A DNA stretch of 40,000 nt from an uncultured Thermoleophilaceae bacterium (GCA_963808545.1 CAWEGB010000008.1:539388-579387), one strand, 5' to 3'. Positions 2 through 30,759 are shown, numbered from the stretch's first letter. Made by a program: numbers and translations. Notes: generated by a model not told the origin, from the sequence alone.

Positions 2-667
2 CACTCCGGACAGCTGCGTGAGGCGCTGAGCCAGGTGCGGTCGAACCCCGCCCTGCGCGTACCTCTGACCGCCATGGCCGTCGTCGGCACGTTGGCATTC
101 AACTTCCAGGTCGTGCTTCCGCTGATGGCTCGCTATGCCTTCGACGGAGGGGCCGGGACCTACGGCGCGCTCGCCGGAGCGATGGGCGCTGGTGCGATCC
201 TCGGCGCGGTGACCACGGCCGGACGCGGCAACCCGTCGCTGACCGGGCTCGGCGCGACCGCGCTGGCCTTCGGCGCCCTCCTGGCCGCCATAGCCGCGGC
301 GCCCACGCTGGGCCTTGCGCTCGCGGCACTGGTGCTGATGGGAGCCGCTGCCATCTCCTTCACCGCTACGACGAACTCACTGCTCCAGCTCGCTGCGCCG
401 ACCGCGATGCGCGGCCGGGTGATGGCGCTCTGGAGCGTCGTATATCTCGGCTCCACGTGTGTGGGCGGCCCGATCATCGGCTGGGTGTCCGAGCTCGCCG
501 GCCCCCGCGCCGGGCTTGCGCTTGGAGCGGTCGCCACGTTCGCGACCGGTGCCGGCCTGCTCATGGGTGCCGTCCGCCGGCAGCGTGCGGGCGAAGTACC
601 GGCCGCGCATGCCTCCTACGGCGCCTCCGGCGCTCAGACGCGCGCCGGGCGCTTCATCGTGCGATAG
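2..667 (+). CDS. MFS transporter, C-terminal part (5' end outside window)
   Basis: Frame 2 is open from nt 2 with no stop, so the gene starts upstream. The translation is about six Ala/Gly/Leu-rich hydrophobic helices, typical of the second half of a 12-TM MFS (EntS/DUF894-like) protein. Stop at 665-667. Confidence 0.7.
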   Translation, partial: HSGQLREALSQVRSNPALRVPLTAMAVVGTLAFNFQVVLPLMARYAFDGGAGTYGALAGAMGAGAILGAVTTAGRGNPSLTGLGATALAFGALLAAIAAAPTLGLALAALVLMGAAAISFTATTNSLLQLAAPTAMRGRVMALWSVVYLGSTCVGGPIIGWVSELAGPRAGLALGAVATFATGAGLLMGAVRRQRAGEVPAAHASYGASGAQTRAGRFIVR

Positions 668-1731
668 ACGAACTCGTCCGTCGGCCCCGACTCGCGTGCC
701 GAGACGACGCGGTCGTGATGCGGCGAGAACCGGCAGACCGGATCCGTGGCCGCCGCGTCGCCGGTGAGCCGCAGCGCCTGGCAGCGGCAACCGCCGAAGT
801 CCACCTCCTGGCGTCCGAGCGGGCACGTGCGGCATGGCTCCTGCATCCAGTCCGTCCCCCGGAAGCGGGCGAACGCGTCGGACTCGCTCCAGATCCACTC
901 AAGCGGATGCTCGCAAACGTTGGCGAACTCGAGCCCCGGGATCGTCGACGCCGCCTGGCAGGGCAACACATCGCCGTTCGGAGCGACCACAATCGCCGTC
1001 CGGCCCCAGCCACCCATGCATGGCTTCGGCAGGTCCTCATAGAAGTCCGGGAGCACCCAGAGGACGTCGACCTTGGGGCCGACCCGCTCGCGGAAGCGCC
1101 GGACCGCTTCCTCTGCGCGCCGCAGCTGCTCCCAAGATGGCATGAGCGCCTCCTGGTTTGGGACCGCCCAGCCGTAGTACTGCGTATTCGCGAGCTCGAG
1201 CCGCTGCGCCCCGAGATCGATTGCGAGATCGAGCAGCTCCTCGATCCGATCGAGGTTCTGCCTATGCAGCACGCAGTTAATCGTCAGCGGGAAGTCCAGC
1301 TCCTTGACGACGTGCGCGGCCGCGATTTTCTTCTCGAACGACCTGTTGCCGGCGATGCGGTCGTTCTCCGCCGCGTCCGGGCTCTGAATGGAGATCTGCA
1401 CGTGGTCTAGCCCGGCCGACTTCAGCGCCTCGGCGCGCTCGCGGGTGAAGTGGATCCCGGCGGTGATCAGCGACGAGTAGAGGCCGGCGTCGCGCGAACC
1501 CGAGCAGAGCTCGACCAGATCGCGGCGCAGCATCGGCTCACCGCCCGTGAGCGCGAGCTGAAGGACGCCGAGCGCGCGCGCCTGCCGGAAGGTGCGGGTC
1601 CAGTGCTCGGTCTCGAGTTCGCGGCGGTACTTCGCGGCGCCGATGTCGAGCGGGTTCGAGCAGTATGGGCAGTGAAGCGGGCACTGGTAGGACAGCTCGG
1701 CGATCAGCGTTGACGGCCTAAGCAGCTGCAT
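634..1731 (-). CDS. pqqE: PqqE, radical-SAM/SPASM peptide cyclase for PQQ biosynthesis
   Basis: 365-aa ORF starting at ATG 1731. N-terminal radical-SAM CxxxCxxC (CPLHCPYC), GGEP motif and C-terminal SPASM Cys cluster (CRTCP..GGCRCQA). Last gene of a pqqABCDE-ordered block, overlapping the pqqD end by 14 nt. Confidence 0.95.
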   Translation of the reverse strand: MQLLRPSTLIAELSYQCPLHCPYCSNPLDIGAAKYRRELETEHWTRTFRQARALGVLQLALTGGEPMLRRDLVELCSGSRDAGLYSSLITAGIHFTRERAEALKSAGLDHVQISIQSPDAAENDRIAGNRSFEKKIAAAHVVKELDFPLTINCVLHRQNLDRIEELLDLAIDLGAQRLELANTQYYGWAVPNQEALMPSWEQLRRAEEAVRRFRERVGPKVDVLWVLPDFYEDLPKPCMGGWGRTAIVVAPNGDVLPCQAASTIPGLEFANVCEHPLEWIWSESDAFARFRGTDWMQEPCRTCPLGRQEVDFGGCRCQALRLTGDAAATDPVCRFSPHHDRVVSARESGPTDEFVYRTMKRPARV

Positions 1732-1981
1732 CGACCACCAGGCCTCTCTGAGTCAGGCCGTCGACCAGCCCTTGAACGTCATCTCGTAGATCGGAGTCCT
1801 CGTAGCGCGCCGAGAGGGTGCCGACGATTTCGTCGACCGAGCGCTCCCCGTCGCACAGCTCAAGCACCGCCGCCGCTGTGGGGTTGAGCCGCACGGCCCC
1901 CTCGGGGACCAGCAGCACGTGCTCCTCGCGCACCTCGTCATATTGAAGCCGCGCGCCGGTGACGAGCCGGGGGCGGGTCAC
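1718..1981 (-). CDS. pqqD: PqqD, PQQ precursor-peptide chaperone
   Basis: This is the C-terminal 87 codons of the 341-aa track ORF. GTG at 1981 forms a GTGA overlap with the pqqC stop. The sequence (..[29 protein letters not shown]..) is PqqD-like. The upstream part of the track ORF is an alternate frame of pqqC. Confidence 0.85.
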
Positions 1982-2715
1982 GCGTCCGGCCCCGACGGCT
2001 GCGTCTCGCCGCGCTCGATGGCCTCGAGCTGTGCCCACAGCATCTCGGTCTTGAAGCGGAGCGCGGCGACGGCAGTCTCCTGCTGCTCGCGGGTTCGGCA
2101 GCGCTCGACGGTCAGGTCGAGGGCGTACTGCGCATCGCGTGGCGCCTGCACGAGCCGTGTGCGGAAGTACTCGAGCCCGGCGGGGTCGATCCAGTCGTAG
2201 TGCCTCTCGAGTGCGTCGAGCCGCACCCGGATCGCGGCCGGCCCGAAGAGCTCGGTGAGCGATGACGCGACCGCCTCGATCCACGGCTTCTGGCGCGCAA
2301 AGTTCACGTAGGCGTCGACCGCGTAGCGCACGGCGGGCAGCACGCGTCGCTCCGACAGCAGCTCCTCCCGCGAGACCCCGAGCGCCTCGCCGAGGCGTAG
2401 CCACGACTCGATACCCCCCTTTTCGTCGCTCCCGCCGTCGTGGTCGATGATGCGGCCCACCCACTCCCGCCTGACCTCGACGTCGGGGCAGTTTGACAGG
2501 ATCGCCGCATCCTTCAGCGGGATGCACTTCTGGTAGTAGAAGCGGTTCGCAACCCAGCGCTGGAGCTCCTCGCGCGTGAGCTCTCCCGCGTCCATTCGCC
2601 TGTGGAACGGGTGCAGGTTGTGGTAGCGCGTCCCCTGCGCGCGCAGCTGAGCGACGAACTCCGCGGGTGGCCAGGGCGCAGGCTCCGTCGTCGGTCTCGT
2701 CGCGGTCTCGCTCAT
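1978..2715 (-). CDS. pqqC: PqqC, pyrroloquinoline-quinone synthase
   Basis: 245-aa ORF with full-length resemblance to PqqC (..[44 protein letters not shown]..). ATGA overlap with the pqqB stop. Confidence 0.95.
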
Positions 2716-3608
2716 TGCTCGATCTCGAGGCCATCGTAGGCAACTTCCACGCCCGCGACTCGGACCGCCTCGCGCTCGGGGGAGTCCTCGAGCAGTATCG
2801 GGTTCGTATTGTTGATGTGGACGAGCACCGTGCGCGGTCGCTCGAGCCGCGCCAGCCCCTCGAGCGTCCCGCCCGGGCCCGAGAGCGGTAGGTGTCCCAT
2901 GTCGCGGGCGCTACGCGCCGAGATGCCGAGCCGGGCGAGCTCGTCGTCGCGCCAGAAGGTTCCGTCGACGAGCACGGCGTCGCTCGCGGCGAACCGGGTG
3001 AGCATGTCGGCGTCCAGGCGGGCGAGACCGGGAGCGTAGGTCACCACGCCGCCACTCGCTGCGTCGCGGAAGACGAACCCACTGGCCTGAAGCTCGACAT
3101 CCGACCCGTCCAGGTAGCGCGGCGCGTCGCCGCCAGTCTCGAACGGCTCGACCGTGAGGCTCGATCCTCCGAGCGGTCTAACCTGCCCCGGCTCCAGCGT
3201 CCGCCACTCGGCCCCGGAGTAGCGCTTCAGGATCGACAACACGGGATAGCCGCTCCGCAGCGCGCGCTCGACGCCCTCGGCTCCGTAGACGCACACGGGC
3301 GCCGCCGACTCACGCAGAAGCAGCAGCCCGGCGGTGTGGTCGATCTCGGCGTCGGTCAGGAGGACGCCCGCGATCGGGGGCGAGCGCACCCCCTCTGCCT
3401 GACCGGGCGCGAGCGCTTCGAGTTGCTGGCGCGCATCCGGCGAGGCGTTGACCAGAAACCACGGCCCCTCCTCACCGCGAATCGCGAGCGACGACTGCGT
3501 CCGAGGTCGCGCCCGTACACCCTCGCGCCCGGCCTCGCAGGTGCCGCAGCGACAGTTCCACTGCGGAAAGCCTCCGCCGGCGGCCGAGCCGAGAATGCGG
3601 ACGCGCAC
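2712..3608 (-). CDS. pqqB: PqqB, metallo-beta-lactamase-fold PQQ biosynthesis protein
   Basis: 298-aa ORF with a GTG start. The N-terminus [24 protein letters not shown] is characteristic of PqqB. Lies between pqqA and pqqC. Confidence 0.9.
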
Positions 3609-3629
3609 GTGGCGGAAGAACAGGTAGCC

Positions 3630-3646
3630 CCGGCGGGGGGGCGCCG
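3630..3646 (-). promoter_or_regulatory. GC-rich stem-loop between pqqA and pqqB (possible attenuator or transcript-stabilising hairpin)
   Basis: Perfect inverted repeat CCGGCG / CGCCGG with a 5-nt loop, 23 nt after the pqqA stop. No clear U-tract follows. Hairpins at this position are known in other pqq operons. Confidence 0.4.
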
Positions 3647-3668
3647 GAGGCTACGTCGGACTGCCGCT

Positions 3669-3809
3669 CTACCGGTGGTACATGTAGAGGGTGACCTCGC
3701 AACAGAGGTCGACGTACTCGAACTCGGGCTTGACCCACGTGGGACGGGTCTCCGAGGTGACCTCGGAAGAGAGGCCGACGAGCTCAAGCTCGGGCGTGAT
3801 CAACGTCAT
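3669..3809 (-). CDS. pqqA: PqqA, PQQ precursor peptide (46 codons; below the ORF-track size cutoff)
   Basis: Manual translation of the minus strand gives MTLITPELELVGLSSEVTSETRPTWVKPEFEYVDLCCEVTLYMYHR*. ATG at 3809 is preceded by GGAGGAG. The C-terminal E-V-T-L-Y is the conserved Glu-x3-Tyr PQQ core. Lies immediately upstream of pqqB. Confidence 0.8.
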   Translation of the reverse strand: MTLITPELELVGLSSEVTSETRPTWVKPEFEYVDLCCEVTLYMYHR

Positions 3810-3844
3810 GGAACTCCTCCTTTAGCGAATGATTCTCTTATCGA

Positions 3845-4357
3845 TCAACCAAGCAGTAGGAACACACCAGACGCCACGAGCAGAGCGACTCCGGCGAACC
3901 GGACCGCGACTGCTCGACTCTGCAGCGCCGGAACCACGCGCGGGAGCACCCCGGCCACGTACAGGCCGACAAGGGCAAGCAGCGCACTGGACAGCGCCTG
4001 CTCCGCGGCGTGCCCGACGAGCGAGCCCGAGTAGTCGCTCGCCACGCCATAGGCGAGGTTGTCCATCGTCAGGGCAAATGGCAACACCCAGACAGCCCAT
4101 GACGCCGTGACCAGTCGCGACCCGGCGGCGACGACGATCAGATAGTACGCCAGCACGGCCAGTGTCCCAACCGCCAGGAACCCGGTCACACTCTCCGAGA
4201 TCGTCCAACCGAGGCCCGCCCCGATCAGGAATGCGGCGCCGTCGGCGGCGGCGAAGAGCGCGGCGAGCGGCAGGCGCCACCGTCGCTCGACAAGCGCACC
4301 GATCGCGAGGCACGCGATAAAGCTGTCAATACCAAGAAGTAAGAAACCCATGCTCAA
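3845..4357 (-). CDS. Integral membrane protein, MntP/YtaF-like (DUF204 repeats)
   Basis: 170-aa ORF with about 5-6 predicted TM helices. Two copies of the DUF204-type motif (LLLGIDSFIACLAIG and FALTMDNLAYGVAS), as in the Mn efflux pump MntP. Lies between the dehydrogenase and pqqA. Confidence 0.55.
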   Translation of the reverse strand: MSMGFLLLGIDSFIACLAIGALVERRWRLPLAALFAAADGAAFLIGAGLGWTISESVTGFLAVGTLAVLAYYLIVVAAGSRLVTASWAVWVLPFALTMDNLAYGVASDYSGSLVGHAAEQALSSALLALVGLYVAGVLPRVVPALQSRAVAVRFAGVALLVASGVFLLLG

Positions 4358-4387
4358 CTCCAGACCCTGATTAGTGGCTTGTCGTTG

Positions 4388-6079
4388 TTACTCCTCCGGC
4401 AGCGCGAATACGAACAGGGAGCTTCCCTGACCCGCCCCGAGCATCCCGGGCAAAAACCCTTCCGTCCATGCGCCCCAACCGGTCGGCACGGCGATGTACT
4501 GCCTTCCGTCGATGCTGTAGGACGAGGGGCTGCTGTGGTGGCCGCTGCCACACTGGAAGTGCCACAGCAGCTCCCCGCTCTCGGCGTCGAGCGCGTTGAA
4601 CTCCCCGGTGGGCTCGCCGGCGAACACGAGGTTGCCGCCCGTGGTCAGCACCGATGAGCACATCGGTATGTCATTCGCCCAGCGCCAACGCTCCTCACCC
4701 GTGCGCGGATCGAAGGCGCTCACAGACCCCGCCATGTCCTCGAGGTCCACGGCGACTCCCGCTCCCCAGTACGGGATGCTCTCCTTGAACTCCCTGCGCC
4801 GCCGCGTGGCCGTCGCACCGACGTCCTGCACCGGGGCGTACAACAGCTCGGTGTTCGGGTTGTAGCACGCGTGCGTCCATTCCTTGGCGCCGGCCGGCCC
4901 CGGCCAGAAGTGGACCGGGTCGCCCTCCTTGTCGGGGTAGACCTTAGGCGTCACGTTGCCCTTCTCGTCGACCTCGCCCCAGTCGATGCGGTCGACGAAC
5001 GGCGCCACCCGGACCGGCTCCATGTTCGTGCGATCGAGGATGTAGAGGAACCCGTTCTTGTCGAAGTGCGCCGCCAGCTTCTGCCCGTCGAGGTCGAACA
5101 GGATGTGCTCCATCGTGGAGTCGTAGTCCCACAGGTCGTGCGGGGTGTACTGGAAGTGCGACCGGATCTCGCCGCTGTCAGCGTCCACGGCGACGCCGGA
5201 ATCGGTGTAGAGGTTGTCGCCCTCGCGGACGCCTCCGTCGAAGTCGGGACACGGGTTGCCGGTCCCGAAGTACAGAAGGTTCAGCTCCGGGTCGAAGGTG
5301 CTCGTGACCCAGCAGTTGCCGCCACCCCGCTGCCAGGCCTCGCCTTCGGGCCAGGTCTCGGAGCCCGGCTCTCCGGGCTTCGGCACCATGTAGCACCGCC
5401 ACACGCGCTCGCCGGTCTCGCGCTTGAACGCGTCGGCGTGGCCGCGCACCCCGAATTCCCCGCCGGAGCTCCCGACGATGACCATGTCCTTTACGACCAG
5501 GGGGGCGACCGTGGCGCTCTCGCCGGCCCGCACATCGCCGTACGTCTGGTCCCAGACCTTCTTACCGGTCTCGGCGTCAAGCGCGACGAGGTGGGCGTTC
5601 AGGGTGACGACGAAGACCTTTCCCTCGGCCACGGCGACCCCGCGATTCACGTTGCCGCAGCAGAGCGACACGTCGTACGGGATCGCATGCCTGTACTGCC
5701 ACAGTTGCTCTCCGGTCCGGGCGTCAAGGGCCCAGACCCAGCCATCCCAGCCTGAGACGAACATGGTTCCGTCCACGACGATCGGAGAGGCCTCGAACGA
5801 GTATGTCGATTTGCCCGAGTGCAGGCCCACTGAGCCGCACTGGAAGACCCATGCCGGGGCAAGCCGCTTGACGTTCTCCTTGTTGATCTGGTCTAGCGGG
5901 CTGTAGCGCTGCCCGTCGTAGGCGCCGTAGTAGGTGAGCCAGTTCTGCGGTTCCGAGCGGGCGTCGAGAATGCGCTCGTAGGTGACGTCCTTGGCCACCG
6001 GCGGCGCAATGCCTTTGATGGGGCTCAGAGTTGTGTTGTCGACGGCCTGCCCTGCGTCTACGTACTCCTCGGTTGCCAT
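4388..6079 (-). CDS. xoxF: PQQ-dependent dehydrogenase, methanol/ethanol family, XoxF-like (lanthanide-type signature), no signal peptide
   Basis: 563-aa ORF. ATG 6079 has AGGAG 6 nt upstream; the track start at 6082 is TTG, and an in-frame TAG lies 3 codons further up. Motifs present: vicinal Cys-Cys (SLCCGNVNRG), GGEFGVRG, WQRGGGNCW, GTGNP and HDLWDYDS (D-x-D). Family assignment is high confidence. The xoxF label and the substrate are inferred. Confidence 0.85.
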   Translation of the reverse strand: MATEEYVDAGQAVDNTTLSPIKGIAPPVAKDVTYERILDARSEPQNWLTYYGAYDGQRYSPLDQINKENVKRLAPAWVFQCGSVGLHSGKSTYSFEASPIVVDGTMFVSGWDGWVWALDARTGEQLWQYRHAIPYDVSLCCGNVNRGVAVAEGKVFVVTLNAHLVALDAETGKKVWDQTYGDVRAGESATVAPLVVKDMVIVGSSGGEFGVRGHADAFKRETGERVWRCYMVPKPGEPGSETWPEGEAWQRGGGNCWVTSTFDPELNLLYFGTGNPCPDFDGGVREGDNLYTDSGVAVDADSGEIRSHFQYTPHDLWDYDSTMEHILFDLDGQKLAAHFDKNGFLYILDRTNMEPVRVAPFVDRIDWGEVDEKGNVTPKVYPDKEGDPVHFWPGPAGAKEWTHACYNPNTELLYAPVQDVGATATRRRREFKESIPYWGAGVAVDLEDMAGSVSAFDPRTGEERWRWANDIPMCSSVLTTGGNLVFAGEPTGEFNALDAESGELLWHFQCGSGHHSSPSSYSIDGRQYIAVPTGWGAWTEGFLPGMLGAGQGSSLFVFALPEE

Positions 6080-6122
6080 CAAGTACTCCTATCCACGGTG
6101 GTGGTTGTGCCGAGCGGTCGAT

Positions 6123-6560
6123 CTACGGTTGCGGCTGCGGCGGGCGGTCCAGACGTGCCTCCGGCGGAGCGTCCCCTTGCACGACGATCGCCGCGGTCAA
6201 GCCGCGGCCCTCGTCGTTGCCGGTACGGGAGCCGTACCAGTAGTACCCCGGGCCGTCGAGGGTGAGGTTGGCCGTCCCGCGCGAATGGTTCACCAACCAG
6301 ATGAACTTGTAGTCACCGTTGCACGGCAGGACTGCGCAATGGGTGTTCTTGTCGTCGTTGAAGAACTCGATCTCGACCTCGCCTGCATGGGGCAGGACAA
6401 GGATCCCGGGCTCGAACACCAGCTCGTCCTCCAAGATCCGGACCGTGGCGCGCATCTTGCCGTCGGGTCCCTCCTCGGCCTCCCCGATGCTTCCCCGCCC
6501 GAGCATTCGACCCAACATCGCGCCATTTTGCTTATCCAACAACTCCGCAATCTTGGCCAC
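6123..6560 (-). CDS. Small cupredoxin-like protein lacking the canonical type-1 Cu ligand set
   Basis: 145-aa ORF. GTG start with GAGGA 5 nt upstream. Protein-like composition, unlike the Arg/Pro-rich shadow ORFs. GEVEIEFFNDDKNTHCAVLP and GYYWYGSRTGNDEGRGLTAAIVV resemble the first-His strand and the C-terminal strand of cupredoxin_1-type domains, but the C..H..M ligands are replaced. No signal peptide. Confidence 0.55.
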   Translation of the reverse strand: MAKIAELLDKQNGAMLGRMLGRGSIGEAEEGPDGKMRATVRILEDELVFEPGILVLPHAGEVEIEFFNDDKNTHCAVLPCNGDYKFIWLVNHSRGTANLTLDGPGYYWYGSRTGNDEGRGLTAAIVVQGDAPPEARLDRPPQPQP

Positions 6561-6596
6561 GGCGATCCTCGCTTTGGGTCGGATTTGGGCACGAGC

Positions 6597-7976: not shown

Positions 7977-8001
7977 GCGCGTGTCCGGGTGCGGCGCTGC
8001 T

Positions 8002-8376: not shown

Positions 8377-8399
8377 TGCGATCGCCTCCTTCGAGGGCA

Positions 8400-18785: not shown

Positions 18786-18806
18786 TGGCGCCCCGCAGGC
18801 GCAAGA

Positions 18807-22593: not shown

Positions 22594-24233
22594 CGCCCGT
22601 TCCCGTTGCGCCGGGCGGCGATCCGGCGGGCGGGCTCCAGCAGCCACGGCTCGCGGACCGGGTAGTTCGCGAACTTCACGCTGTAGAGCTCGTCGAAGAG
22701 CGGTCGCAGGGTGCGCTCGATCGCCTCGTCGTGATCGGCCGCCACCCGGAGGAGCTCCCCGGCCGGCGTCTCGCGCAGCTCGCCCTCTTCGACGATCACG
22801 CGTCCGCTCTTGATGACGTAGCGCGGCGTGGCGAACATCTCCTCGACGTCCTCGCGCTCCCGGTAGACCGTCACGTCGGCGTCGGCACCTACCCCGAGAT
22901 GGCCCTTGTCGGTCAGCCCGAGCAGTCGCGCGGGCCCGGCACGGGTGATGATCGCAATCTCGCCAAGCGTGTACTCACGCTCGAGGTCGTCGCGAAGCAC
23001 GGTGCGCCCGATCGCCTTCTGGTTGACGCGCCCGATCTGCTCGTTTCGGAACTCGCGGTCCATCAGCAGGCGGATCAGCCGCGGGTAGCTCAGGAACGAG
23101 CCGCCGTTGGGGTGGTCGGTCGAGAGCACGACCCGCCATGGGTCGCGGCTGAGCAGGAACAGCTCCAGGCCGATCCCCCACTGCAGCGCGTGAACGTAGT
23201 TGCGTTCGCGGTACTCGAAGGGCACGATGCCGCAGCCGGTCTCAGCCTCGAGATCGGCGTTCACCCACTTGCCGCCGGTGACCTCGCGCAGCACCGCGGA
23301 GACGGGCGCGTCGGCGGTCATCGTCGTCGCCGCCCCGAACATCACCTGGCCGATGTCGGCGCTGTGCTCGGGGTGCGCGTCGAGGTGCTCGGCCAGCTCC
23401 GGCGCGCGCGAGCGCGGCCGTTTGCCAGGCGTCCCGCCGTAGGCGTGGAACTGCAGGTGAGCGAGGTGCGCCCGCCGGCCCTGCAGGGCGTCGAGCGTGT
23501 CGAGCGTGGTGCGCCAGTTCCCCGCGACCCCGAGGTTGTTGCAATGGACGTGGACGGGGTGAGGCAGGCCGAGCTCGTCGACGGAGCCGGCGATCGCCTC
23601 CAGCACGCGGCGCGGCGTGACGCCCAGCCCCTCCACCTCGTCGTCCAGCGCCGTGACATTGCCGTTGCCGTGCTTCCACATCTCGACGCCGCCCGGGTTG
23701 ACCAGCTTGACGCCATAGCCGCCGGTCGCCTCCAGGAACCAGGCCACGGCCTCGGTCACGGGGCCACCTTCGCGGATGAGCTTGAACAGCGGCAGGTTGT
23801 TGCCCATCAGCACGAGGAAGGCGGCGTCGACAATCGGTGTGTCCCGCAGCTCTGCGAGCGTGTGGCGCGCGGCGAGCGGCGGGGTGGCGGCGTCGACGAC
23901 GGTCGTGTAGCCGAGGAGCGCGTAGCGGTATCCGGTCGCGAAGGTCGACGGCACCGTCCCGCCCGTTCCCGAGCGCGTGAGCGCGGTGCGATCGATCACG
24001 TCGGCCCGGTGCTCCTCCGGGGCGAGCTTGCGCGCGGCGTTGACCGCCGGACCGGCGATGTGGGAGTGGATGTCCACCCCGCCCGGCATCACGACCATGC
24101 CGCTTGCATCGATGCGCGGGGCGTGCGACGGCAGCTCATCGACCACCTTGCCGCCGTCCAGGCAGACGTCCCGCACCTCGCCGTCGATCCCGTTGGCCGG
24201 GTCGTAGACGCGCCCTTGCGCGATGCGCAGCAT
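22590..24233 (-). CDS. fhcA: Formyltransferase/hydrolase complex subunit A (FwdA-like amidohydrolase)
   Basis: 547-aa ORF starting at ATG 24233. Amidohydrolase motif ..MPGGVDIHSHIAGP.. and full-length FwdA/FhcA resemblance. Confidence 0.9.
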   Translation of the reverse strand: MLRIAQGRVYDPANGIDGEVRDVCLDGGKVVDELPSHAPRIDASGMVVMPGGVDIHSHIAGPAVNAARKLAPEEHRADVIDRTALTRSGTGGTVPSTFATGYRYALLGYTTVVDAATPPLAARHTLAELRDTPIVDAAFLVLMGNNLPLFKLIREGGPVTEAVAWFLEATGGYGVKLVNPGGVEMWKHGNGNVTALDDEVEGLGVTPRRVLEAIAGSVDELGLPHPVHVHCNNLGVAGNWRTTLDTLDALQGRRAHLAHLQFHAYGGTPGKRPRSRAPELAEHLDAHPEHSADIGQVMFGAATTMTADAPVSAVLREVTGGKWVNADLEAETGCGIVPFEYRERNYVHALQWGIGLELFLLSRDPWRVVLSTDHPNGGSFLSYPRLIRLLMDREFRNEQIGRVNQKAIGRTVLRDDLEREYTLGEIAIITRAGPARLLGLTDKGHLGVGADADVTVYREREDVEEMFATPRYVIKSGRVIVEEGELRETPAGELLRVAADHDEAIERTLRPLFDELYSVKFANYPVREPWLLEPARRIAARRNGNGR

Positions 24234-24239: not shown

Positions 24240-25472
24240 CTAGCCCCCCTCGTCCCCGGCGATGCGTCCCTGGATCGCGGCGAGCACTTCGCCGTCCCCG
24301 ACGCGTTCGGATACGAGCGGCGCGCGCAGCGTCAGGGGCACGCCGTCCATCCGATGCGCGGTGGCCTCACGCTGTACTCCGGCGGCGGCCGTGGCGAACG
24401 CGACGCGGGCCACCGAGGCGGTCTCGGTGGCGCGCGGGTCGACGACCACCATGGGGATCCGGCGAAGGTTGTCGGCCGCGCGCGGCGGGAGCTGGCGCAG
24501 CGCGTCGAAGCCCACGATCAGCGCGGCGTCCGGCTCGCCGCGCTCCAGCAGGCCGGCGGCACTGAACTCCCCGGACCGCGCCCGCGGATGACCTCGCGCG
24601 AAGCTCACGGCTGCCGGGTACCCGGTCTGCCACGCCAGCACGTCCTCGGCTCCGCGCGCATTGCCCTCCCGCCGCAGCGGCAGAGCGACCACGTGGGCGA
24701 CGCGCGCCAGATCGCGCACGAGGGCGAGCAGCGCCAGCGAGTTCGCGTACCCGGCGGGACCGTGCAGCACCACGCCGTAGCTGCTTGCGCGCAGACGGGC
24801 CGCGAGCTGCGCGAGGGCGTCGAGCGGCAACCGCGCCGCGAGATCGCGCTCGAGCGGGATCTCGCGCGCGAGCGCTCGCAGCGCCCATAGCGCCTCGAAG
24901 TCGAGCTCGGGTGCGACCTCGATGAACTCGTCGGCCTCCGCGGCGGTTGCGCTGCGCTGTTCATCGACGACCACCAGCGTGCGCTCGGCCGCCCGCGCCG
25001 CGTGATCGAGCCGCAGGCGCGGAAGCAGCCGCGGATTGGACGAGACCGGGTCGGCGCGCCAGGCGACGACGAGATCGGCCCGGTCGCGGACGTCGCCGAA
25101 TGTTGCAGTGCTGACCCCTAGGGTCTGCGAGGCCGCTGCGACACCGTCCGAGGGGTCGATCACGGCGCCGAGCGCCTCGGCCAGGGCCACGGCGGCGCGC
25201 TGGCTCTCACAGTCGGTCCCCCCGAGGCCGCAGAACAGCGGCAGCCGGGCCTCGCCGAGGATCGCGGCCGACGCCTCGACGGCGTCTGCGAGGTCCACCT
25301 CGCGGCCGTCGACGCGGGCCAGCGGAGGAGCCTCGGCCGTCCGTTCGGCAAGCCACGCGTCGCCCAGTGGGCAGGTGCCGGTCGCGCCCTCGAGCGCTCC
25401 GGCGGCAACCGCGACCTCGATGTCGTCACATCCACATCCGCAGCCGCCACAGGTCGCTGCGTACTCAGGCAT
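24240..25472 (-). CDS. fhcB: Formyltransferase/hydrolase complex subunit B (FwdB-like)
   Basis: 410-aa ORF starting at ATG 25472. N-terminal Cys cluster ([12 protein letters not shown]) and molybdopterin-oxidoreductase-like body, as in FhcB. First gene of the fhcB-A-D-C block. Confidence 0.85.
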
Positions 25473-25584: not shown

Positions 25585-26097
25585 ATGGCCAAGACCCTGT
25601 CCGTCGGAGAGTCACTGGTGGGTGACGGCAACGAGGTCGCTCACATCGATCTGTTGATCGGATCCAAGGATGGGCCGGTCGGCGAGGCGTTCGCCGGCGC
25701 TCTCCTGAACCAGAAGGAAGGCCACACGAACCTGCTCGCCGTGGTCGCGCCGAACCTCCCGGCCAAGCCCGACACGATCATGGCCAACAAGGTGACGATC
25801 AAGGGTGAGAAGCAGGTGGGGCAGATGTTCGGGCCCGCCCAGGCGGCGGTGGCACGAGCCGTCGTCGACTCGGTGCGTGACGGTGTGATCTCGGAGGCGG
25901 AGGCCGACGATCTCTGCATCATCGTCGGCGTCTTCATCCACTGGCTGGCCGAGGACGACAAGAAAGTCTTCGACTGGAACTACCAGGCGACGAAGGAGTC
26001 AATCGCGCGCGCGATGGCCGGCGAGCCCGCCGCGGGGACCGTGGCCGAGCAGGCGGCCGAGGCGCGCCACCCGTTCGCCGGGGGCGTGGAGGTCTAG
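25585..26097 (+). CDS. fae: Formaldehyde-activating enzyme (5,6,7,8-tetrahydromethanopterin hydro-lyase)
   Basis: 170 codons from ATG 25585, preceded by GAGAGAGAGG. ..[45 protein letters not shown].. is unmistakably Fae. The upstream part of the 353-aa track ORF is antisense to fhcB. Confidence 0.93.
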
Positions 26098-26124: not shown

Positions 26125-26988
26125 GTGAAGAAGGTTCTCCTACAGCTCGACACCGATCAACACCCGAGCCCGTTCGACGCCATCGTGGCCCAGGACGCGG
26201 GGGTTGATGTCCTGCTCAGCCACGGCAGCGTGGCTCCGGAGGCGGTGCGCGGGCTTGTGCAGGGAGCCTTCTTTACACGCGCCCCCGGTGACTCCTCGAT
26301 GGCCGTGTGGGTCGGCGGCTCTGACGTGGCGGACGGCGAGAAGCTTCTCGACGAGGTGCAGGCTTCGTACTTCGGCCCATTCCGCCTGTCGACGATGCTC
26401 GACTCCGACGGCTGCAACACGACGGCGGCCACCGCCATCGCGCTACTCGCAAAGGATCGCGACCTGGGCGGCCGCCGCGCGGTGATCTTGGGGCTGGGAC
26501 CTGTCGGGCTGCGCTCCGCGGCGCTCCTGATCCAGGAGGGCTGCGAGGTACTTGCGGTGACGATCCCGGCCGACGTCCTGGGCACGGACTCCTACCGTCG
26601 GCCGCGGGGCTTCGCGGTCGCCGAGCGACTCGGAATCTACGCTCGCGAGGTGGCCGACCGGGCAGAGATGGAGGCGGCGCTTGAGGAGGCGAACATCGTC
26701 GTGGCCGCGGGGCCTGCCGGCGTGCAGCTGCTGGGGAAGGAGGTGTGGAGCGCCAATCCCACCATCGAGCTGCTGGTCGACTACAACGCGGCCGACCCGC
26801 TCGGGGTCGAGGGCATCGAGGCCGGGGACGTCCTCGTCGAGCGGGAGGAGAAGCTGGTTATCGGCGCGCTGGGCGTCGGCGGCTGGAAGATGAAGACGCA
26901 CAAGGCCTGCGTGCGCCAGCTCTTCGAGCGTAACGACCTCGTGCTCAACGCCGATGGCGTCTACGCCGTGGCCCAAGAGATCGTCTGA
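26125..26988 (+). CDS. mtdB: NAD(P)-dependent methylene-tetrahydromethanopterin dehydrogenase, MtdA/MtdB family
   Basis: 287-aa ORF with a GTG start. MKKVLLQLDTDQHPSPFD.. and a Rossmann segment AVILGLGPVGLRSA match the Mtd family. MtdA and MtdB cannot be separated by eye. Confidence 0.85.
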   Translation: MKKVLLQLDTDQHPSPFDAIVAQDAGVDVLLSHGSVAPEAVRGLVQGAFFTRAPGDSSMAVWVGGSDVADGEKLLDEVQASYFGPFRLSTMLDSDGCNTTAATAIALLAKDRDLGGRRAVILGLGPVGLRSAALLIQEGCEVLAVTIPADVLGTDSYRRPRGFAVAERLGIYAREVADRAEMEAALEEANIVVAAGPAGVQLLGKEVWSANPTIELLVDYNAADPLGVEGIEAGDVLVEREEKLVIGALGVGGWKMKTHKACVRQLFERNDLVLNADGVYAVAQEIV

Positions 26989-27007: not shown

Positions 27008-28084
27008 GTGGCCGGCGTCGACCCCGGGACCGTGTCCATCGACGTGTGCGCGCTCGACGGCGGAGAGGTGCTGCTCGACGAGAGCTTCCGGTCGGCCGAT
27101 CTGGCGCTCGACCCGGCACCGCTCGTCGATGCTCTCGTTGCCCACCGCCCCTTCGACCTCGTGCTCGGTCCCGCCGGCTACGGGCTGCCGCTCGTTCCGG
27201 GCGAGCGGGTCGGTGAGCGCGAGTTGGCCCTCATGCTGCTCCTGCGGAGCGATCAAGCAGGCGCGCGCGCCGGCATCGGCGGCATGCGCGCGATGATCCG
27301 CGCGCTCATCGGCGCCGGGCTGCCACTTGTCTTCGGCCCGGGAGCGATCCACCTGCCTACGGTCCCGGAGTACCGCAAGTGGAACCGCATCGACCTCGGG
27401 ACCGCGGACAAGGTCGCCAGCGCGGCGCTGTGCATCGTGGACCAGGCCAGCCGGCTTGGTCTGGCCTACGAGGAGACCTCATTCATCATGCTCGAGCTCG
27501 GCGGCGCCTTCAGCGCCGCGCTCGCGATCGAGCGCGGGCGGATCGTTGACGGGCTCGGCGGCTCCTGCGCCCCAATCGGGGCTCGCTCATGCGGGGCGCT
27601 CGACGCGGAGGCGGCCTACCTGCTGGGCGCGGGACTGTCCAAGGAGACCGTCTTCAGCGGCGGGGCGCTCGACCCGCGCGGGGACCTAGACCTTTCGGCG
27701 CCCGGGGCGCTCGAGGCGTTGCGCGGCGATCCCCGTCACCGCGACGGATGGCTCGCTCTCGAGGAGGGCGCGGTGAAGGCTGCGCTCGCCCTGACGGTCT
27801 CGGTTTCCGCGCCGCGCGAGATCCTCGTCGCCGGCCGCCTGGCGGGCGCTCCCGGCCTGCTCGACGCGCTGACCGAACGGCTCGCCGGTGTGGCAACCGT
27901 CCGCGCCGCCAACGGGCTGGGCACGCGCGCCAAGACGGCAGCGGAGGGCGCGGCGCTGCTCGCGGACGGCCTGGCCGGGGGGCGCTACGCACCGCTCGTC
28001 GAGCTGCTGCGCCTGAGCGAGGCGAGCGGCACCGCGCTGGACCACCTGCGCATGCACGGCGCCGGGAGCATCCGCCTTGCCTAG
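27008..28084 (+). CDS. ASKHA-fold protein, DUF1464/butyrate-kinase-like
   Basis: About 358 codons from GTG 27008 (the track ORF starts at 26954, inside the mtd 3' end). VAGVDPGTVSIDVCAL.. phosphate-1-like motif, ..LELGGAFSAALAIERGRIVDG... Family call is from pattern memory only. Confidence 0.55.
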   Translation: MAGVDPGTVSIDVCALDGGEVLLDESFRSADLALDPAPLVDALVAHRPFDLVLGPAGYGLPLVPGERVGERELALMLLLRSDQAGARAGIGGMRAMIRALIGAGLPLVFGPGAIHLPTVPEYRKWNRIDLGTADKVASAALCIVDQASRLGLAYEETSFIMLELGGAFSAALAIERGRIVDGLGGSCAPIGARSCGALDAEAAYLLGAGLSKETVFSGGALDPRGDLDLSAPGALEALRGDPRHRDGWLALEEGAVKAALALTVSVSAPREILVAGRLAGAPGLLDALTERLAGVATVRAANGLGTRAKTAAEGAALLADGLAGGRYAPLVELLRLSEASGTALDHLRMHGAGSIRLA

Positions 28085-29447
28085 CCTCTTCCAGGTGCAA
28101 CCCGACCTCGGCCCCGCCGGCGGGGAATTCACCACCCAAGGCCCGACCGGCACGCCGGTGACGTCGATCCGCGTGCTCTACCCCGATCTCCACGGCATCG
28201 CCCGCGGCAAGGAAGTCCCTATCGCGCAGTTCGACGACGTCATCGAGAAGGGTCTGTGCTTCTGCGCGGCGGTGATGGGCACCGACCTGCGCCACACGCC
28301 CGTGGTCGGCCGCGACGAAGGCTATCCGGACTTCATCGCCCGTCCCGACACGTCGACTATGACGACGCTCCCCTGGGAGCCGGGGGTGGCGAGCTGCCTG
28401 GCGAATCTCGAGCCGGCCGCCGGAGGAGCGCCCATCCCGGACCCGCGCGGGAGGCTGCGCCAGGCCGTGGAGAACCTGAGGGCGATCGGTTTGGACCCGA
28501 TCGTCGGCCCTGAGCTCGAGTTCTTCCTGGTCCAGCTCGATTCGGCCGAAGCAAACGGCATCCGGCGGCGCGTCGACCAACCGAGCATGGTCTACACGGT
28601 CGGGGCACAGGCGGATCCCGATGGCATCGTGCGGGGCATGACCGAGGGGTTGACGCAGCTTGGGGTGGAGGTACTCGCCTTCAACCACGAGTTCATGAAC
28701 AGCCAGTACGAGATCAACCTGCGCCACACCGATGCGCTGCAGGCCGCCGATCGAGCGTTCCGCCTGAAGTCGGCCGTCAAGGACATCGCGGTGCAGCACG
28801 GCGTCGTGGCCACGTTCATGGGTAAGCCCTTCAACGACCAGGGTGGCTCGGGCACCCATCTCCACGTCTCACTGAACCGGGGCGAGCGCAACGCGTTCGA
28901 CGCGCCGGGGCAGGAGGACGGCGTCAGCGCCGAGTTGCGCGCGTTCACGGCCGGCGCGCTCGCCCACTCCGCCGGGCTGATGGCGGTCCTCAACCCCACC
29001 ATCAACGCCTACCGGCGGATCCGGCCTGACTCGCTGGCGCCCACGCACGCGAACTGGGGCTGGGACAACCGGGGTACGTTCATCCGCATCCCGCCGGAGC
29101 GCGGCGGCGCCACGCGCATCGAGATCCGGGTCGCCGACGGCGCCGCGAACCCGTATCTGGCGATCGCCGCAGTGCTGGCCGCCGGTGCGCACGGCGTGCG
29201 AGAGGGCCTGACCCCGCCCCCGCCCGTCGACGGCGACGCATACCGCGCGGACCGGGAGCTGATCGGCCCGCCGCTGCCCGCCTCCCTGGACGCCGCCCTC
29301 GAAGCGCTCGAGCGCGACGCCGTCCTGTGCCGAGCGCTCGGCCCGCAGATCATCAATACGTTCCTGGCGGTCAAGCGCTTCGAGATCGAGCGCCACCGCG
29401 CCTGGGTCTCGGATTGGGAGATCGCCGAGTACCTGCATCACCTCTGA
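28077..29447 (+). CDS. Glutamine-synthetase-family gamma-glutamyl ligase (GlnA3/PuuA/GmaS-like)
   Basis: 456-aa ORF. TTG 28077 overlaps the previous stop by 8 nt (alternative GTG 28095). GS catalytic-domain motifs present: ..GPELEFFL.., ..NHEFMNSQYEINL.., ..KPFNDQGGSGTHLHVSL.., ..NAYRRI... The amine substrate cannot be inferred. Confidence 0.8.
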   Translation: MPSLFQVQPDLGPAGGEFTTQGPTGTPVTSIRVLYPDLHGIARGKEVPIAQFDDVIEKGLCFCAAVMGTDLRHTPVVGRDEGYPDFIARPDTSTMTTLPWEPGVASCLANLEPAAGGAPIPDPRGRLRQAVENLRAIGLDPIVGPELEFFLVQLDSAEANGIRRRVDQPSMVYTVGAQADPDGIVRGMTEGLTQLGVEVLAFNHEFMNSQYEINLRHTDALQAADRAFRLKSAVKDIAVQHGVVATFMGKPFNDQGGSGTHLHVSLNRGERNAFDAPGQEDGVSAELRAFTAGALAHSAGLMAVLNPTINAYRRIRPDSLAPTHANWGWDNRGTFIRIPPERGGATRIEIRVADGAANPYLAIAAVLAAGAHGVREGLTPPPPVDGDAYRADRELIGPPLPASLDAALEALERDAVLCRALGPQIINTFLAVKRFEIERHRAWVSDWEIAEYLHHL

Positions 29448-29751
29448 CCCGGAGCCCCAGCCATGTCGCAGACCACCGAGTTCACCGACCTCGACGCGGT
29501 ACGAGGACACCGCCGCGTTCACCGCGGTGTGGACGTCTCAGCTCGAGCTGCGCAATACGCTCTGACGCCGGTCGCCTCGACTCTCGGGCGCTGGCGCCAT
29601 TCAGCGGCGAGCTGACTCAGCGAGCGCTGAGCAGCAGGCCGGCTGACGCAAGTGCGCAGCTCTTGCGGCAGGCGCGCCTCTCTTCCCTGTGCCTGCGCAG
29701 AATTGACCGCCGGATTTGCCTCGCGGCCCACTCGATATCGTTGGTTGCGCC

Positions 29752-30759
29752 ATGACCCAGCCAACTACGCGGGACCGCGTGGATGTCCAGGCGCGTCGAC
29801 CCGCCACCCACCTGAGCCTCTCTCGAGTGGGCGTGACGGGCGTCGAGAAGGTCGTCCGCGTCCGCTCGAACGGGATTGAGCAGCTCTTCTACGCGGAGCT
29901 CGAGTGCTTCGTCGAATTGGGCCCCGAGCAAAAGGGGGCTCACATGTCGCGCTTCGAGGAGATCGTGAACGAAGCGATCGACGAGGTCATCCTCGGCGAG
30001 GCCTTCAAGGCGGAGACGCTGGCGTCGCACATCGCCGAGCGCGTACGCGACCGCCAGGACGGCCGGCGCGCCGAGGTCGCGATCGCCGCCAGGTACCCGG
30101 AGCACAAGCAGACCCCGGTGTCGGGTCTGCCAACACAGGAGATCTACACCCTCTTCGGCTCGGCGGTGGCGTCGGCGCGCGGGACCCGCCGCCTCGTCGG
30201 AGTCGAGGCGCAGGGCATGACGGCGTGCCCGTGCGCGCAGGAGCTTGTGATGGAGCGCTCACAGGAGCGCCTGCGCGAGGGCGGCTTTACAGGCGACGAG
30301 ATCGCGCGCGTGTTCGAGTCGGTGCCAGTGGCCACGCACAATCAGCGCGGCATCGGGACCCTCCACATCGGCTGCCCCGAGAGCGTCAGCGAGGCGCTCG
30401 AGGCAGAGTCACTGCTCGAGATCGTCGAGACCGCGATGAGCTCCGAGATCTACGCGCTGATGAAGCGCTCGGATGAGGTCGAGGTGGTCGAGAAGGCGCA
30501 CCTGCGGCCGCGCTTCGTGGAGGACTGCGTGCGCGAGATGATCCGCATGGCCATTGAGCGCTTCGGCGCGCTCGATGCGGGCACCTTCGTCTCGGCTCGC
30601 CAGGAGAACCTCGAGACGATCCACAAGCACAACGTGGTCGCCGAGCGCTATGGGTTGCTGGGCGATCTGCGCCAAGAAGTCGGCTTCAGCGAGCAGGTGC
30701 GCCACCACGTGACGAAGCGTGAGTGGCTCGAGGACGCTCCGAGCCCCGAGCGCCTTTGA
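29752..30759 (+). CDS. GTP cyclohydrolase of the FolE2/MptA (DUF198) family
   Basis: 335 codons from ATG 29752. ..KGAHMSRF.., ..QGMTACPCAQEL.. and ..ATHNQRG.. match the type IB / MptA family. Preceded by a 304-bp untranslated gap. Confidence 0.85.
   Translation: MTQPTTRDRVDVQARRPATHLSLSRVGVTGVEKVVRVRSNGIEQLFYAELECFVELGPEQKGAHMSRFEEIVNEAIDEVILGEAFKAETLASHIAERVRDRQDGRRAEVAIAARYPEHKQTPVSGLPTQEIYTLFGSAVASARGTRRLVGVEAQGMTACPCAQELVMERSQERLREGGFTGDEIARVFESVPVATHNQRGIGTLHIGCPESVSEALEAESLLEIVETAMSSEIYALMKRSDEVEVVEKAHLRPRFVEDCVREMIRMAIERFGALDAGTFVSARQENLETIHKHNVVAERYGLLGDLRQEVGFSEQVRHHVTKREWLEDAPSPERL

Follow-up and report, generated by a model that had tools for sequence, protein, structure and literature searches.

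Methanol is among the largest plant-derived fluxes of volatile carbon and is consumed by soils, where its consumers are usually sought with mxaF and xoxF markers, and where methanol dehydrogenases dependent on pyrroloquinoline quinone (PQQ) are presumed to be periplasmic and therefore absent from Gram-positive bacteria. Cytoplasmic methanol dehydrogenases of Gram-positive methylotrophs include the NAD-dependent Mdh of Bacillus methanolicus and the N,N-dimethyl-4-nitrosoaniline (NDMA)-dependent Mno of Mycobacterium and Amycolatopsis. Here we describe a 40,000-nucleotide stretch of DNA (hereafter the window) from an uncultured Thermoleophilaceae bacterium (GCA_963808545.1, CAWEGB010000008.1:539388-579387), in which a PQQ-dependent alcohol dehydrogenase without an export signal is encoded together with PQQ synthesis genes and the tetrahydromethanopterin (H4MPT) pathway of formaldehyde oxidation.

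In Mycobacterium smegmatis, the MSMEG_3721-3727 cluster combines PQQ biosynthesis with a single methanol/ethanol-family dehydrogenase, to which no function has been assigned (Haft, 2011, PMC3023750; Krishnamoorthy et al., 2019, PMC6529628). A Gemmatimonadetes soil contig carries xoxF, H4MPT biosynthesis, fae, mtdB, fhc, and mch together (Butterfield et al., 2016, PMC5103831); the joining of a methanol dehydrogenase to an H4MPT cluster is thus already published and is not unique to the window. 'Actinomycetes' are listed among the phyla with some H4MPT genes, from unpublished genomes (Chistoserdova, 2016, PMC5020050), and XoxF, being periplasmic, is not expected in Gram-positives (Voutsinos et al., 2024, PMC10875860). 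An earlier note on this DNA, made from the sequence alone, held that a PQQ plus H4MPT module would be poorly described in an actinobacterial host, which the literature searched bears out, its only relevant statements being those of PMC5020050, PMC3023750/PMC6529628, and PMC10875860; the searchable full-text literature describes no signal-less PQQ dehydrogenase, no copper-less cupredoxin partner, and no Thermoleophilia H4MPT linkage.

We consider it moderately probable that the window encodes a complete, native module that would oxidize a small alcohol, most probably methanol, to formate wholly in the cytoplasm. We infer the cytoplasmic location, methanol as the substrate, and a lanthanide as the metal from sequence, and read the module as the known PQQ and H4MPT route from methanol to formate, rebuilt for a cell without a periplasm. 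In this route, PqqABCDE would synthesize PQQ in the cytoplasm, and a lanthanide-type PQQ dehydrogenase lacking an export signal, with a copper-less cupredoxin-like partner, would release formaldehyde there. Fae would condense formaldehyde with H4MPT; an MtdA-like dehydrogenase and then Mch would yield formyl-H4MPT; and FhcABCD would pass the formyl group on to a methanofuran-type cofactor, from which hydrolysis would release formate. The pterin, p-aminobenzoate-derived, and furan moieties of the two cofactors would come from about fifteen further genes.

A PQQ dehydrogenase without a signal peptide, and its cupredoxin-fold partner

Because the window is ~71% G+C, a longest-ORF rule is unreliable (185 open reading frames [ORFs] of ≥80 aa); genes were called with a codon-usage model trained on ORFs of high third-position G+C (GC3) and annotated by Pfam and NCBIfam. 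The gene content that the earlier note had named is all present and intact at 634-30759; all window ORFs are intact, and the pathway genes score above or near curated cut-offs. The two genes on which the account turns are the following:

4388-6079, minus strand: PQQ-dependent alcohol dehydrogenase, 563 aa (TIGR03075 613 bits, cut-off 480; Pfam PQQ 296 bits)
6123-6560, minus strand: MSMEG_3727-family protein, 145 aa, the partner (TIGR04339 245 bits, cut-off 75; family also PF23509)

TIGR03075 and Pfam PQQ identify the dehydrogenase as an eight-bladed PQQ propeller of the methanol/ethanol family. Its best match among solved structures is the lanthanide-dependent ethanol dehydrogenase PedH (6ZCW; 378 bits over residues 33-563), followed by quinohaemoprotein alcohol dehydrogenases (316 and 311 bits), ExaA (303), four XoxF structures (244-293), and MxaF (226-251). 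The label 'XoxF' used in the earlier note does not fit an enzyme that scores 378 bits to PedH, versus at most 293 to XoxF and ~250 to MxaF; because bit scores to solved structures favor PedH, the dehydrogenase is placed, on those scores, outside the XoxF clade. In a residue-level alignment with PedH, the Glu of GGEFG, the Asn of GTGNP, WDYD (WDFD in PedH), and the vicinal Cys-Cys pair all coincide, in keeping with an affinity to PedH/ExaF. The WDYD motif carries an extra, lanthanide-coordinating Asp two residues past the catalytic Asp, which is the accepted signature of lanthanide enzymes, and served as the conserved peptide across 569 relatives recovered by a scan of one genome per GTDB species; the best 80 of these 569 (77-93% identical) were analyzed.

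The dehydrogenase ORF leaves room for just two codons ahead of its earliest possible start (TTG), and the N-terminus, MATEEYVDAG, is hydrophilic. All 80 homologs begin with a MAT(E/D)YVDAG-like sequence, and their 12-residue hydropathy maximum is ≤1.6; the periplasmic signal peptide expected of XoxF is thus lacking from the dehydrogenase and likewise from 80 of 80 homologs. The lack of signal peptides on the one-carbon (C1) enzymes and on this one, which the earlier note took simply as a clue to taxonomy, is the central biological finding. When 1.84 billion representative proteins were searched without a profile, the dehydrogenase fell in a clade apart, its next full-length relatives being 63% and then ≤46% identical. 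All 16 of the next-nearest full-length relatives that were fetched have hydrophobic N-terminal signals, and the 63%-identical relative (P0122) has a lipobox. The window and the related loci examined yielded neither a cytochrome c (xoxG) nor a XoxJ-like binding protein.

In each of the 77 related loci (of 80) in which the partner gene was detected, the dehydrogenase gene follows it directly. Among 32 aligned sequences the partner is 79-94% identical, with His58, His74, Cys75, the loop GSRTGNDEGRGL, and a C-terminal EA(R/K)LDRPPQP tail invariant. An AlphaFold2 model (pLDDT 79) has a cupredoxin fold, which Foldseek matches best to auracyanin, Cupredoxin_1, CupA, CuA domains, and pseudoazurin (probability 1.0 to auracyanin, Cupredoxin_1, CuA domains, and pseudoazurin; TM-score 0.5-0.57 by query and up to 0.77 by target). 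Of the copper ligands, the first His (H74) alone is kept, the Cys, His, and Met being replaced by Ser111, Asp116, and Leu121. The partner was considered as a simple blue-copper electron carrier and rejected as such: the fold fits, yet three of the four ligands are replaced.

The gene for the exported relative P0122 also has a partner-family gene upstream, and this product carries a lipoprotein signal and the type-1 ligands His...Cys-X4-His-X4-Met; the window partner aligns with it without gaps at 38% identity. The two types separate cleanly. All 120 nearest homologs of the window partner lack both a signal peptide and the Cys/His/Met ligands (His...Ser-X4-Asp-X4-Leu), whereas all 120 nearest homologs of the exported partner keep the ligands, nearly all with a hydrophobic N-terminus and at least 91 with a lipobox. 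In the few cases where a source of the exported type is named, it belongs to the Gemmatimonadota; partner copies of Saccharopolyspora, Nocardioides, and Streptosporangiales likewise have the copper-less loop. This joint split of signals and copper ligands is as expected if the pair had moved into the cytoplasm, and the simplest reading would be that, in Actinomycetota, an originally periplasmic pair of dehydrogenase and blue-copper protein came to reside in the cytoplasm.

It is also conceivable, if quite improbable in our judgment, that the dehydrogenase and its partner are still extracytoplasmic, exported non-classically, whether carried along by a signal-bearing protein or through a type VII-like system, and working like the Gemmatimonadota pair. 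The Cys-Cys pair, normally a disulfide, is retained, the strongly conserved N-terminal 30 residues could serve as a recognition sequence, and the cassette is flanked by a transporter of the major facilitator superfamily (MFS) and a small membrane protein. However, signals were lost together in both proteins, three of four copper ligands are lost in every partner examined, there is no twin-arginine motif, and the conserved neighborhood holds no signal-bearing carrier candidate.

PQQ synthesis, the H4MPT pathway, and their linkage to the dehydrogenase

The PQQ synthesis genes lie downstream of the dehydrogenase, and the C1 and cofactor genes on its other side:

634-1731, minus: pqqE, radical SAM/SPASM PqqA peptide cyclase (TIGR02109 500 bits, cut-off 381; Pfam Radical_SAM and SPASM)
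1718-1981, minus: pqqD (Pfam PqqD 65 bits)
1978-2715, minus: pqqC (Pfam TENA/THI-4/PQQC 186 bits)
2712-3608, minus: pqqB (TIGR02108 353 bits, cut-off 245)
3669-3809, minus: pqqA, 46 aa (Pfam PqqA 26.4 bits, cut-off 21.1)
6597-7976, minus: dihydropteroate synthase (DHPS)-like H4MPT biosynthesis protein (Pfam DUF6513 and pterin-binding; TIGR00284 165 bits, below cut-off)
8002-8400, minus: pterin-4a-carbinolamine dehydratase (PCD)-like protein (Pfam Pterin_4a 84 bits; NF002017 84 bits)
8400-9182, minus: short-chain dehydrogenase/reductase (SDR), first gene of a long minus-strand unit (Pfam adh_short_C2 181 bits)
9181-10110, plus: CitG-like protein of H4MPT-linked clusters (Pfam CitG 223 bits)
10116-11273, plus: ATP-grasp ligase, candidate MfnD-type (Pfam ATP-grasp_3 85 bits)
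11297-12247, plus: mch, methenyl-H4MPT cyclohydrolase (Pfam MCH 390 bits)
12244-12825, plus: DUF447 protein, split-barrel flavoprotein-like (Pfam DUF447_N and DUF447_C)
12822-13763, plus: beta-ribofuranosylaminobenzene 5'-phosphate (beta-RFAP) synthase, MptG type (TIGR00144 151 bits, cut-off 113.5)
13760-14464, plus: MfnB, 4-HFC-P (4-(hydroxymethyl)-2-furancarboxaldehyde phosphate) synthase of methanofuran biosynthesis (Pfam 4HFCP_synth 236 bits)
14505-15437, minus: R2lox-like di-metal carboxylate protein (both EXXH motifs; nearest solved structures 4HR0 and 3EE4, E ~1e-14)
15421-16131, minus: MfnE-like kinase (Pfam AA_kinase; NF040622 100 bits, below cut-off)
16125-17132, minus: MfnF-like, H4MPT-linked C1 transfer protein, 335 aa (TIGR03123 305 bits, cut-off 244; Pfam Hydantoinase_A)
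17160-17885, plus: HisA/HisF-like TIM-barrel protein (Pfam His_biosynth 132 bits; same gene called in L092)
17898-18785, minus: RimK-like ATP-grasp glutamate ligase, MptN type (Pfam RimK 112 bits; public call agrees)
18807-20945, plus: PabA-PabB fusion, aminodeoxychorismate synthase, 712 aa (Pfam GATase, Anth_synt_I_N, and Chorismate_bind; TIGR00553 342 bits)
20873-21694, minus: fhcC (TIGR03122 257 bits, cut-off 131)
21694-22593, minus: fhcD, formyltransferase (Pfam FTR and FTR_C)
22590-24233, minus: fhcA, amidohydrolase subunit (TIGR03121 681 bits, cut-off 393)
24240-25472, minus: fhcB (TIGR03129 297 bits, just under the cut-off of 328)
25585-26097, plus: fae, formaldehyde-activating enzyme (Pfam Fae 230 bits; 202 bits to Methylorubrum extorquens Fae 1Y5Y)
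26125-26988, plus: mtd, MtdA-like methylene-H4MPT dehydrogenase (Pfam Mpt_N 89 bits; 217 bits to MtdA 1LU9)
27008-28084, plus: DUF1464 protein of H4MPT-linked clusters (Pfam DUF1464 259 bits)
28077-29447, plus: glutamine synthetase (GS)-like ligase (Pfam Gln-synt_C 336 bits; below every NCBIfam equivalog cut-off)
29752-30759, plus: MptA, GTP cyclohydrolase of H4MPT biosynthesis (TIGR00294 281 bits, cut-off 220)

The starts of the CitG-like gene (309 aa) and of MptA (335 aa) follow public gene calls. All five PQQ genes, pqqA, B, C, D, and E, are present, as are intact genes for Fae, Mtd, Mch, and FhcA/B/C/D, which together make up H4MPT-dependent formaldehyde oxidation.

To assess linkage, 34 window proteins were compared with all fetched loci by tblastn, and a locus was scored as linked if at least three H4MPT/methanofuran markers lay within 10 kb of the dehydrogenase. 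By this measure 37 of 54 Thermoleophilia-labeled loci are linked, versus 0 of 11 from the class Actinomycetes. The linked loci show at least three gene orders: that of the window, with the DHPS-like, PCD, and SDR genes upstream of the dehydrogenase and pqq downstream; a second with DUF447, RFAP synthase, MfnB, R2lox, MfnE, MfnF, and PabAB upstream; and a third in which fhcA, fhcB, fae, mtd, and DUF1464 precede the dehydrogenase and pqq is not close by. The dehydrogenase often sits directly downstream of H4MPT genes on the same strand. That the linkage survives such rearrangement argues for functional coupling.

Several observations nevertheless weigh against a module dedicated to taking methanol to formate inside the cell. 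The best solved relative, PedH, is an ethanol-type enzyme, so that methanol is a putative substrate. Seventeen of the 54 Thermoleophilia-labeled loci have no nearby H4MPT genes (some of these are short contigs), and the dehydrogenase-partner-pqq cassette occurs in Saccharopolyspora, Allosalinactinospora, and others without H4MPT genes within 10 kb (0/11), from which it follows that the dehydrogenase does not need the H4MPT route. The Cys-Cys pair is kept, and a vicinal disulfide would be unexpected in a reducing cytoplasm; a conserved electron acceptor was sought in Saccharopolyspora spinosa and in long Thermoleophilia contigs, and none was found. The window contains no genes for formate dehydrogenase, nor for the serine, ribulose monophosphate, or Calvin-Benson-Bassham cycles of assimilation, as the earlier note had observed, and this holds for a further 10 kb beyond either end. 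In M. smegmatis, growth on ethanol needs mycofactocin, not PQQ, under the conditions tested (PMC6529628).

The ethanol-type affinity, the unlinked cassettes (11/11 Actinomycetes-class and 17/54 Thermoleophilia-labeled loci), and the JGI labeling of cluster members only as 'alcohol dehydrogenase (cytochrome c)' would suit an alternative in which the enzyme is a general alcohol/aldehyde quinoprotein of the ethanol type, standing outside C1 metabolism, with the H4MPT module detoxifying formaldehyde from, for example, demethylations, and the co-location reflecting shared regulation or history. We regard this as unlikely, though deserving of serious consideration, given that H4MPT and methanofuran genes stay linked to the dehydrogenase across at least three different gene arrangements, that the window dehydrogenase lies inside the same strand-run as H4MPT biosynthesis genes, and that chance or pure history would not keep the linkage over dozens of species.

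In the cytoplasmic methanol-to-formate module that we favor, electrons could pass to the MSMEG_3727-family protein, if it binds another metal, to the R2lox-like di-metal protein, or to the membrane. The solved structures nearest to the R2lox-like protein (4HR0 and 3EE4) are R2-like ligand-binding oxidases, and its gene is present in 35 of 54 Thermoleophilia-labeled loci versus 0 of 11 Actinomycetes-class loci; in two loci (L088:4060-5034, and L051) the protein has an N-terminal rubredoxin-like domain. It might be an oxidase that takes the electrons of the dehydrogenase, or a cofactor-tailoring enzyme.

FhcB scores 206 bits to archaeal FwdB (5T5I) versus 54 bits to M. extorquens FhcB (6S6Y), and is intermediate in character: the N-terminal 4-Cys iron-sulfur motif is kept, and in the alignment to 5T5I the segment with the W/Mo ligand of FwdB (Cys118-His119) is deleted. 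A redox-active formylmethanofuran dehydrogenase was considered as an explanation for the missing formate dehydrogenase, and rejected. Given the deletion of the Cys-His segment, and with FwdD not found in the window, the complex is best read as a formate-releasing formyltransferase/hydrolase. A formiminotransferase-cyclodeaminase gene is present in the left extension of the window.

The earlier note's description of the block as 'self-contained', with 'essentially the whole' set of cofactor genes, was overstated: MfnA, MfnC, MptB, MptE, PabC, and a recognizable dihydromethanopterin reductase were not found in the window by Pfam or NCBIfam. These enzymes may be encoded elsewhere in the genome or replaced by non-homologous enzymes. 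The GS-like ligase gene belongs to the fae unit, where it has 8 nt in common with the end of the DUF1464 gene; its product is a possible gamma-glutamyl ligase for the side chain of the methanofuran-type cofactor. The pqqA gene looks tandem-duplicated, the first copy (PELELVGLSSEVTSE) lacking the Tyr of the E-X3-Y core and the second being canonical; the duplicated form recurs in L007, L032, L041, L052, and L058, whereas most relatives have a normal 24-aa PqqA.

Host lineage, native origin, and gene architecture

The window, taken from a metagenome contig, represents part of the chromosome of an uncultured soil actinobacterium belonging to the class Thermoleophilia (Solirubrobacterales-type). 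Almost all of the best 80 dehydrogenase relatives are metagenome-assembled genomes (MAGs) labeled Solirubrobacteraceae, Thermoleophilaceae, Solirubrobacterales, Baekduia, or Paraconexibacteraceae, Solirubrobacteraceae and Thermoleophilaceae both belonging to the class Thermoleophilia of the Actinomycetota; a few are cultured genomes of the class Actinomycetes (Saccharopolyspora, Allosalinactinospora). With the best relatives nearly all from Thermoleophilia-type MAGs, the actinobacterial host proposed in the earlier note was correct. The most syntenic locus, L007, has the gene order of the window, with 76-100% identity across 21 proteins. In one ENA soil-metagenome study, several contigs, among them one of 650 kb, carry exact copies of the Fae, PqqE, FhcA, and dehydrogenase sequences; NCBI also has a record of up to 872 kb.

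The earlier note called the block an 'island'. In the sense of foreign origin this is rejected on composition, GC3 being 0.893 in the block versus 0.879 in the flank, with a tetranucleotide correlation of r = 0.98-0.99, and the linkage is conserved across the order; because its composition matches the flank, the block is a native gene cluster. Two features could still be cited for recent acquisition (for example, from Proteobacteria or Gemmatimonadota) or for a chimeric or mis-binned contig. The dehydrogenase region is slightly lower in G+C (0.65-0.69 versus 0.72-0.75), and the dehydrogenase is 77-79% identical across two actinobacterial classes, versus 42-61% for the neighboring pqq genes, which could reflect transfer of the pair within the phylum. 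Such an origin is very improbable when GC3 and tetranucleotide usage equal those of the flank, several independent assemblies, the 650-kb and 872-kb contigs among them, carry the same segment, and homologous clusters are found in dozens of Thermoleophilia species. The identity gap itself is seen between Thermoleophilia and Pseudonocardiaceae (L054, L072, and other Saccharopolyspora) for the adjacent pqqB, C, D, and E, and means either that constraint is unusually strong or that the partner-dehydrogenase pair was transferred laterally inside the phylum.

Three loci from the ENA study shared with the window (L088, L005, and L001) are strain or assembly variants. In L088 pqqE is identical, and a rubredoxin-R2lox gene adjoins the partner where the window has H4MPT biosynthesis genes; L005 diverges past the GS-like gene; and in L001 the mtd, DUF1464, and GS-like genes are fragmented, probably by assembly indels. 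The suggestion that the genes are decaying remnants, no longer functional, would draw on these fragments, on the loss of the Cys-His ligand segment from FhcB, and on the loss of copper ligands from the partner. It is scarcely credible: the window ORFs are all intact at a GC3 of ~0.89; the genes broken in L001 are intact in the 650-kb contig; the change in FhcB parallels the known non-redox Fhc of methylotrophs; and the changed residues are invariant in 120 homologs, which indicates selection.

The strand runs form eight units, not the five transcription units claimed in the earlier note, but the short gene overlaps it described are real (ATGA five times, GTGA once), with further overlaps of GTGCTGA, TTGCCTAG, and 14 nt, one each. 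The GTG and TTG starts are likewise frequent, with 15 ATG, 13 GTG, and 4 TTG starts among 32 genes. The SDR, PCD, DHPS-like, partner, dehydrogenase, membrane protein, and pqqA-E genes form a single minus-strand run with gaps of ≤60 bp. In a weak scan, a sigma-70-like site (TTGACC-16-TATAGT, 9221-9194, minus) lies upstream of this SDR-to-pqqE run and is the sole one in 500-9400; no terminator-like sites were seen in the intergenic gaps of the run. At 9173-9221 the starts of the SDR and CitG-like genes, which are on opposite strands, lie only a few bases apart. The sigma-70-like site falls inside the 5' end of the CitG-like gene, and would leave the SDR with a very short leader or none.

The remaining genes of the cassette are:

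2-667, plus: MFS transporter (MFS_3/EntS-like), adjoining pqqE
3845-4357, minus: membrane protein, 168-170 aa, between the dehydrogenase and pqqA (motifs LLLGxDS and DNLxYG)

An MFS transporter is likewise found at the PQQ cassette of Saccharopolyspora spinosa (L072:7190-9007), directly upstream of the partner gene; the cargo of the cassette-flanking transporter could be PQQ, a metal chelator, or the substrate. The membrane protein adjoins the dehydrogenase in ~28 related loci. The window copy matches no family in Pfam or NCBIfam, and one of 13 homologs matches Pfam Mntp weakly (E = 1.4e-4); with motifs resembling those of the MntP type, it is a possible metal transporter. As a counterpart of the DUF2231 protein of the exported systems it was rejected (hhalign probability 4%).

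Two long ORFs resolve differently on inspection of all six frames together with Pfam. The '572-aa MfnF' of the earlier note, also present in public gene calls, consists of the 335-aa MfnF (16125-17132, minus) preceded by ~238 residues that are the antisense of the HisA/HisF-like gene (17160-17885, plus), a gene that the longest-ORF rule misses; it is a typical high-GC annotation artefact that probably occurs in many deposited MAGs. A 1008-aa 'Pab' ORF (17919-20945) is in its first part the antisense of the RimK-like gene (17898-18785, minus) and then the 712-aa PabA-PabB fusion (18807-20945). A tRNA-Ser (16239-16327, minus) and a tRNA-Pro (33996-34089, plus) called by ARAGORN were rejected as probable false positives, because they lie inside coding sequence and have no Rfam match at the gathering threshold. 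The ~960 bp at 30760-31716 hold no confident gene, the ORFs at 30885-31367 (minus) and 31222-31854 (plus) being without a family match and the interval without an Rfam match. The right flank encodes ordinary sugar catabolism, including a lipoprotein solute-binding protein.

Significance and comparison with described systems

Thermoleophilia, including Solirubrobacterales, are among the commonest soil Actinobacteria, and the gene cluster suggests that abundant Gram-positive soil bacteria may oxidize methanol wholly within the cell. The partner-protein family comprises ~2,000 clusters at 90% identity, the majority of those listed being from metagenome sources. If the cytoplasmic route is real, the census of soil methylotrophs and the biological use of rare earths would extend to monoderm bacteria, and xoxF/mxaF-based surveys, together with the assumption that such enzymes are only periplasmic, would miss a Thermoleophilia/Solirubrobacterales group. 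It would also pose a biochemical problem, that of re-oxidizing PQQH2 in the cytoplasm without a cytochrome c or a blue-copper center. A wider reading, possible rather than probable, is that the dehydrogenase clade and its cupredoxin partners moved inside the cell in Actinomycetota, both shedding their lipoprotein signals and the partner its copper site, and were then wired to H4MPT in Thermoleophilia; this would be the first cytoplasmic quinoprotein system for alcohol oxidation, with an electron outlet of undescribed kind, and would make the very abundant Solirubrobacterales of soil an unrecognized lanthanide-using methanol sink.

The closest sister of the window pair is the exported Gemmatimonadota pair (L094-L096), with a dehydrogenase (P0122) 63% and a partner 38% identical to those of the window. 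The two share the order of partner then dehydrogenase and the C-terminal EA(K/R)LDRP tail; unlike in the window, both exported proteins are lipoproteins and the partner has His/Cys/His/Met ligands. In the exported systems a DUF2231 membrane protein comes next, with TonB-dependent receptors nearby, whereas the window has an unrelated 170-aa membrane protein; in two long loci examined, no H4MPT genes lie within 10 kb of the exported pair.

Mdh and Mno resemble the proposed system in oxidizing methanol in a monoderm cytoplasm, but are nicotinoproteins of unrelated folds, and actinomycetes with such enzymes process formaldehyde by mycothiol-dependent or ribulose monophosphate routes, not by H4MPT. 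A PQQ-containing cytoplasmic methanol dehydrogenase was reportedly described from Nocardia sp. 239 by Duine and colleagues in the 1980s and later set aside, and serves here as a lead, not as evidence; we take this organism to be an actinomycete of the family in which the dehydrogenase-partner cassette also occurs. The M. smegmatis MSMEG_3721-3727 cassette, compared by its published description, has the architecture of the Saccharopolyspora loci, and MSMEG_3727 gives the partner family its name; unlike for the window, no H4MPT linkage is reported for it. By description, the Gemmatimonadetes contig (PMC5103831) is like the window in carrying an alcohol dehydrogenase, the H4MPT pathway, and cofactor genes on one contig of an uncultured soil bacterium, and unlike it in having a diderm host and a periplasmic enzyme.

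Among the lanthanide-dependent PQQ ethanol dehydrogenases of the PedH and ExaF types, PedH of Pseudomonas putida shares with the window enzyme the metal-binding Glu, Asn, and Asp-X-Asp as well as the Cys-Cys pair. PedH carries a Sec signal, works in the periplasm, and hands its electrons to a c-type cytochrome, whereas the window enzyme has no signal peptide, a conserved 30-residue N-terminal extension, and a cupredoxin-fold partner. The M. extorquens route uses the same enzyme families as the window from formaldehyde to formate, with a PQQ-dependent alcohol step in both, and shares accessory families (DHPS-like, PCD-like, CitG-like, DUF447, DUF1464, beta-RFAP synthase, MfnB/E/F, and ATP-grasp ligases). 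Unlike the MxaFI/XoxF of M. extorquens, the window dehydrogenase falls outside the MxaF and XoxF clades, is without a signal peptide, and is not accompanied by cytochrome cL/XoxG, XoxJ/MxaJ, or a small subunit; the window differs further in an archaeal FwdB-like FhcB with a 4-Cys motif, and in having its genes in one 30-kb block in a monoderm actinobacterial host.

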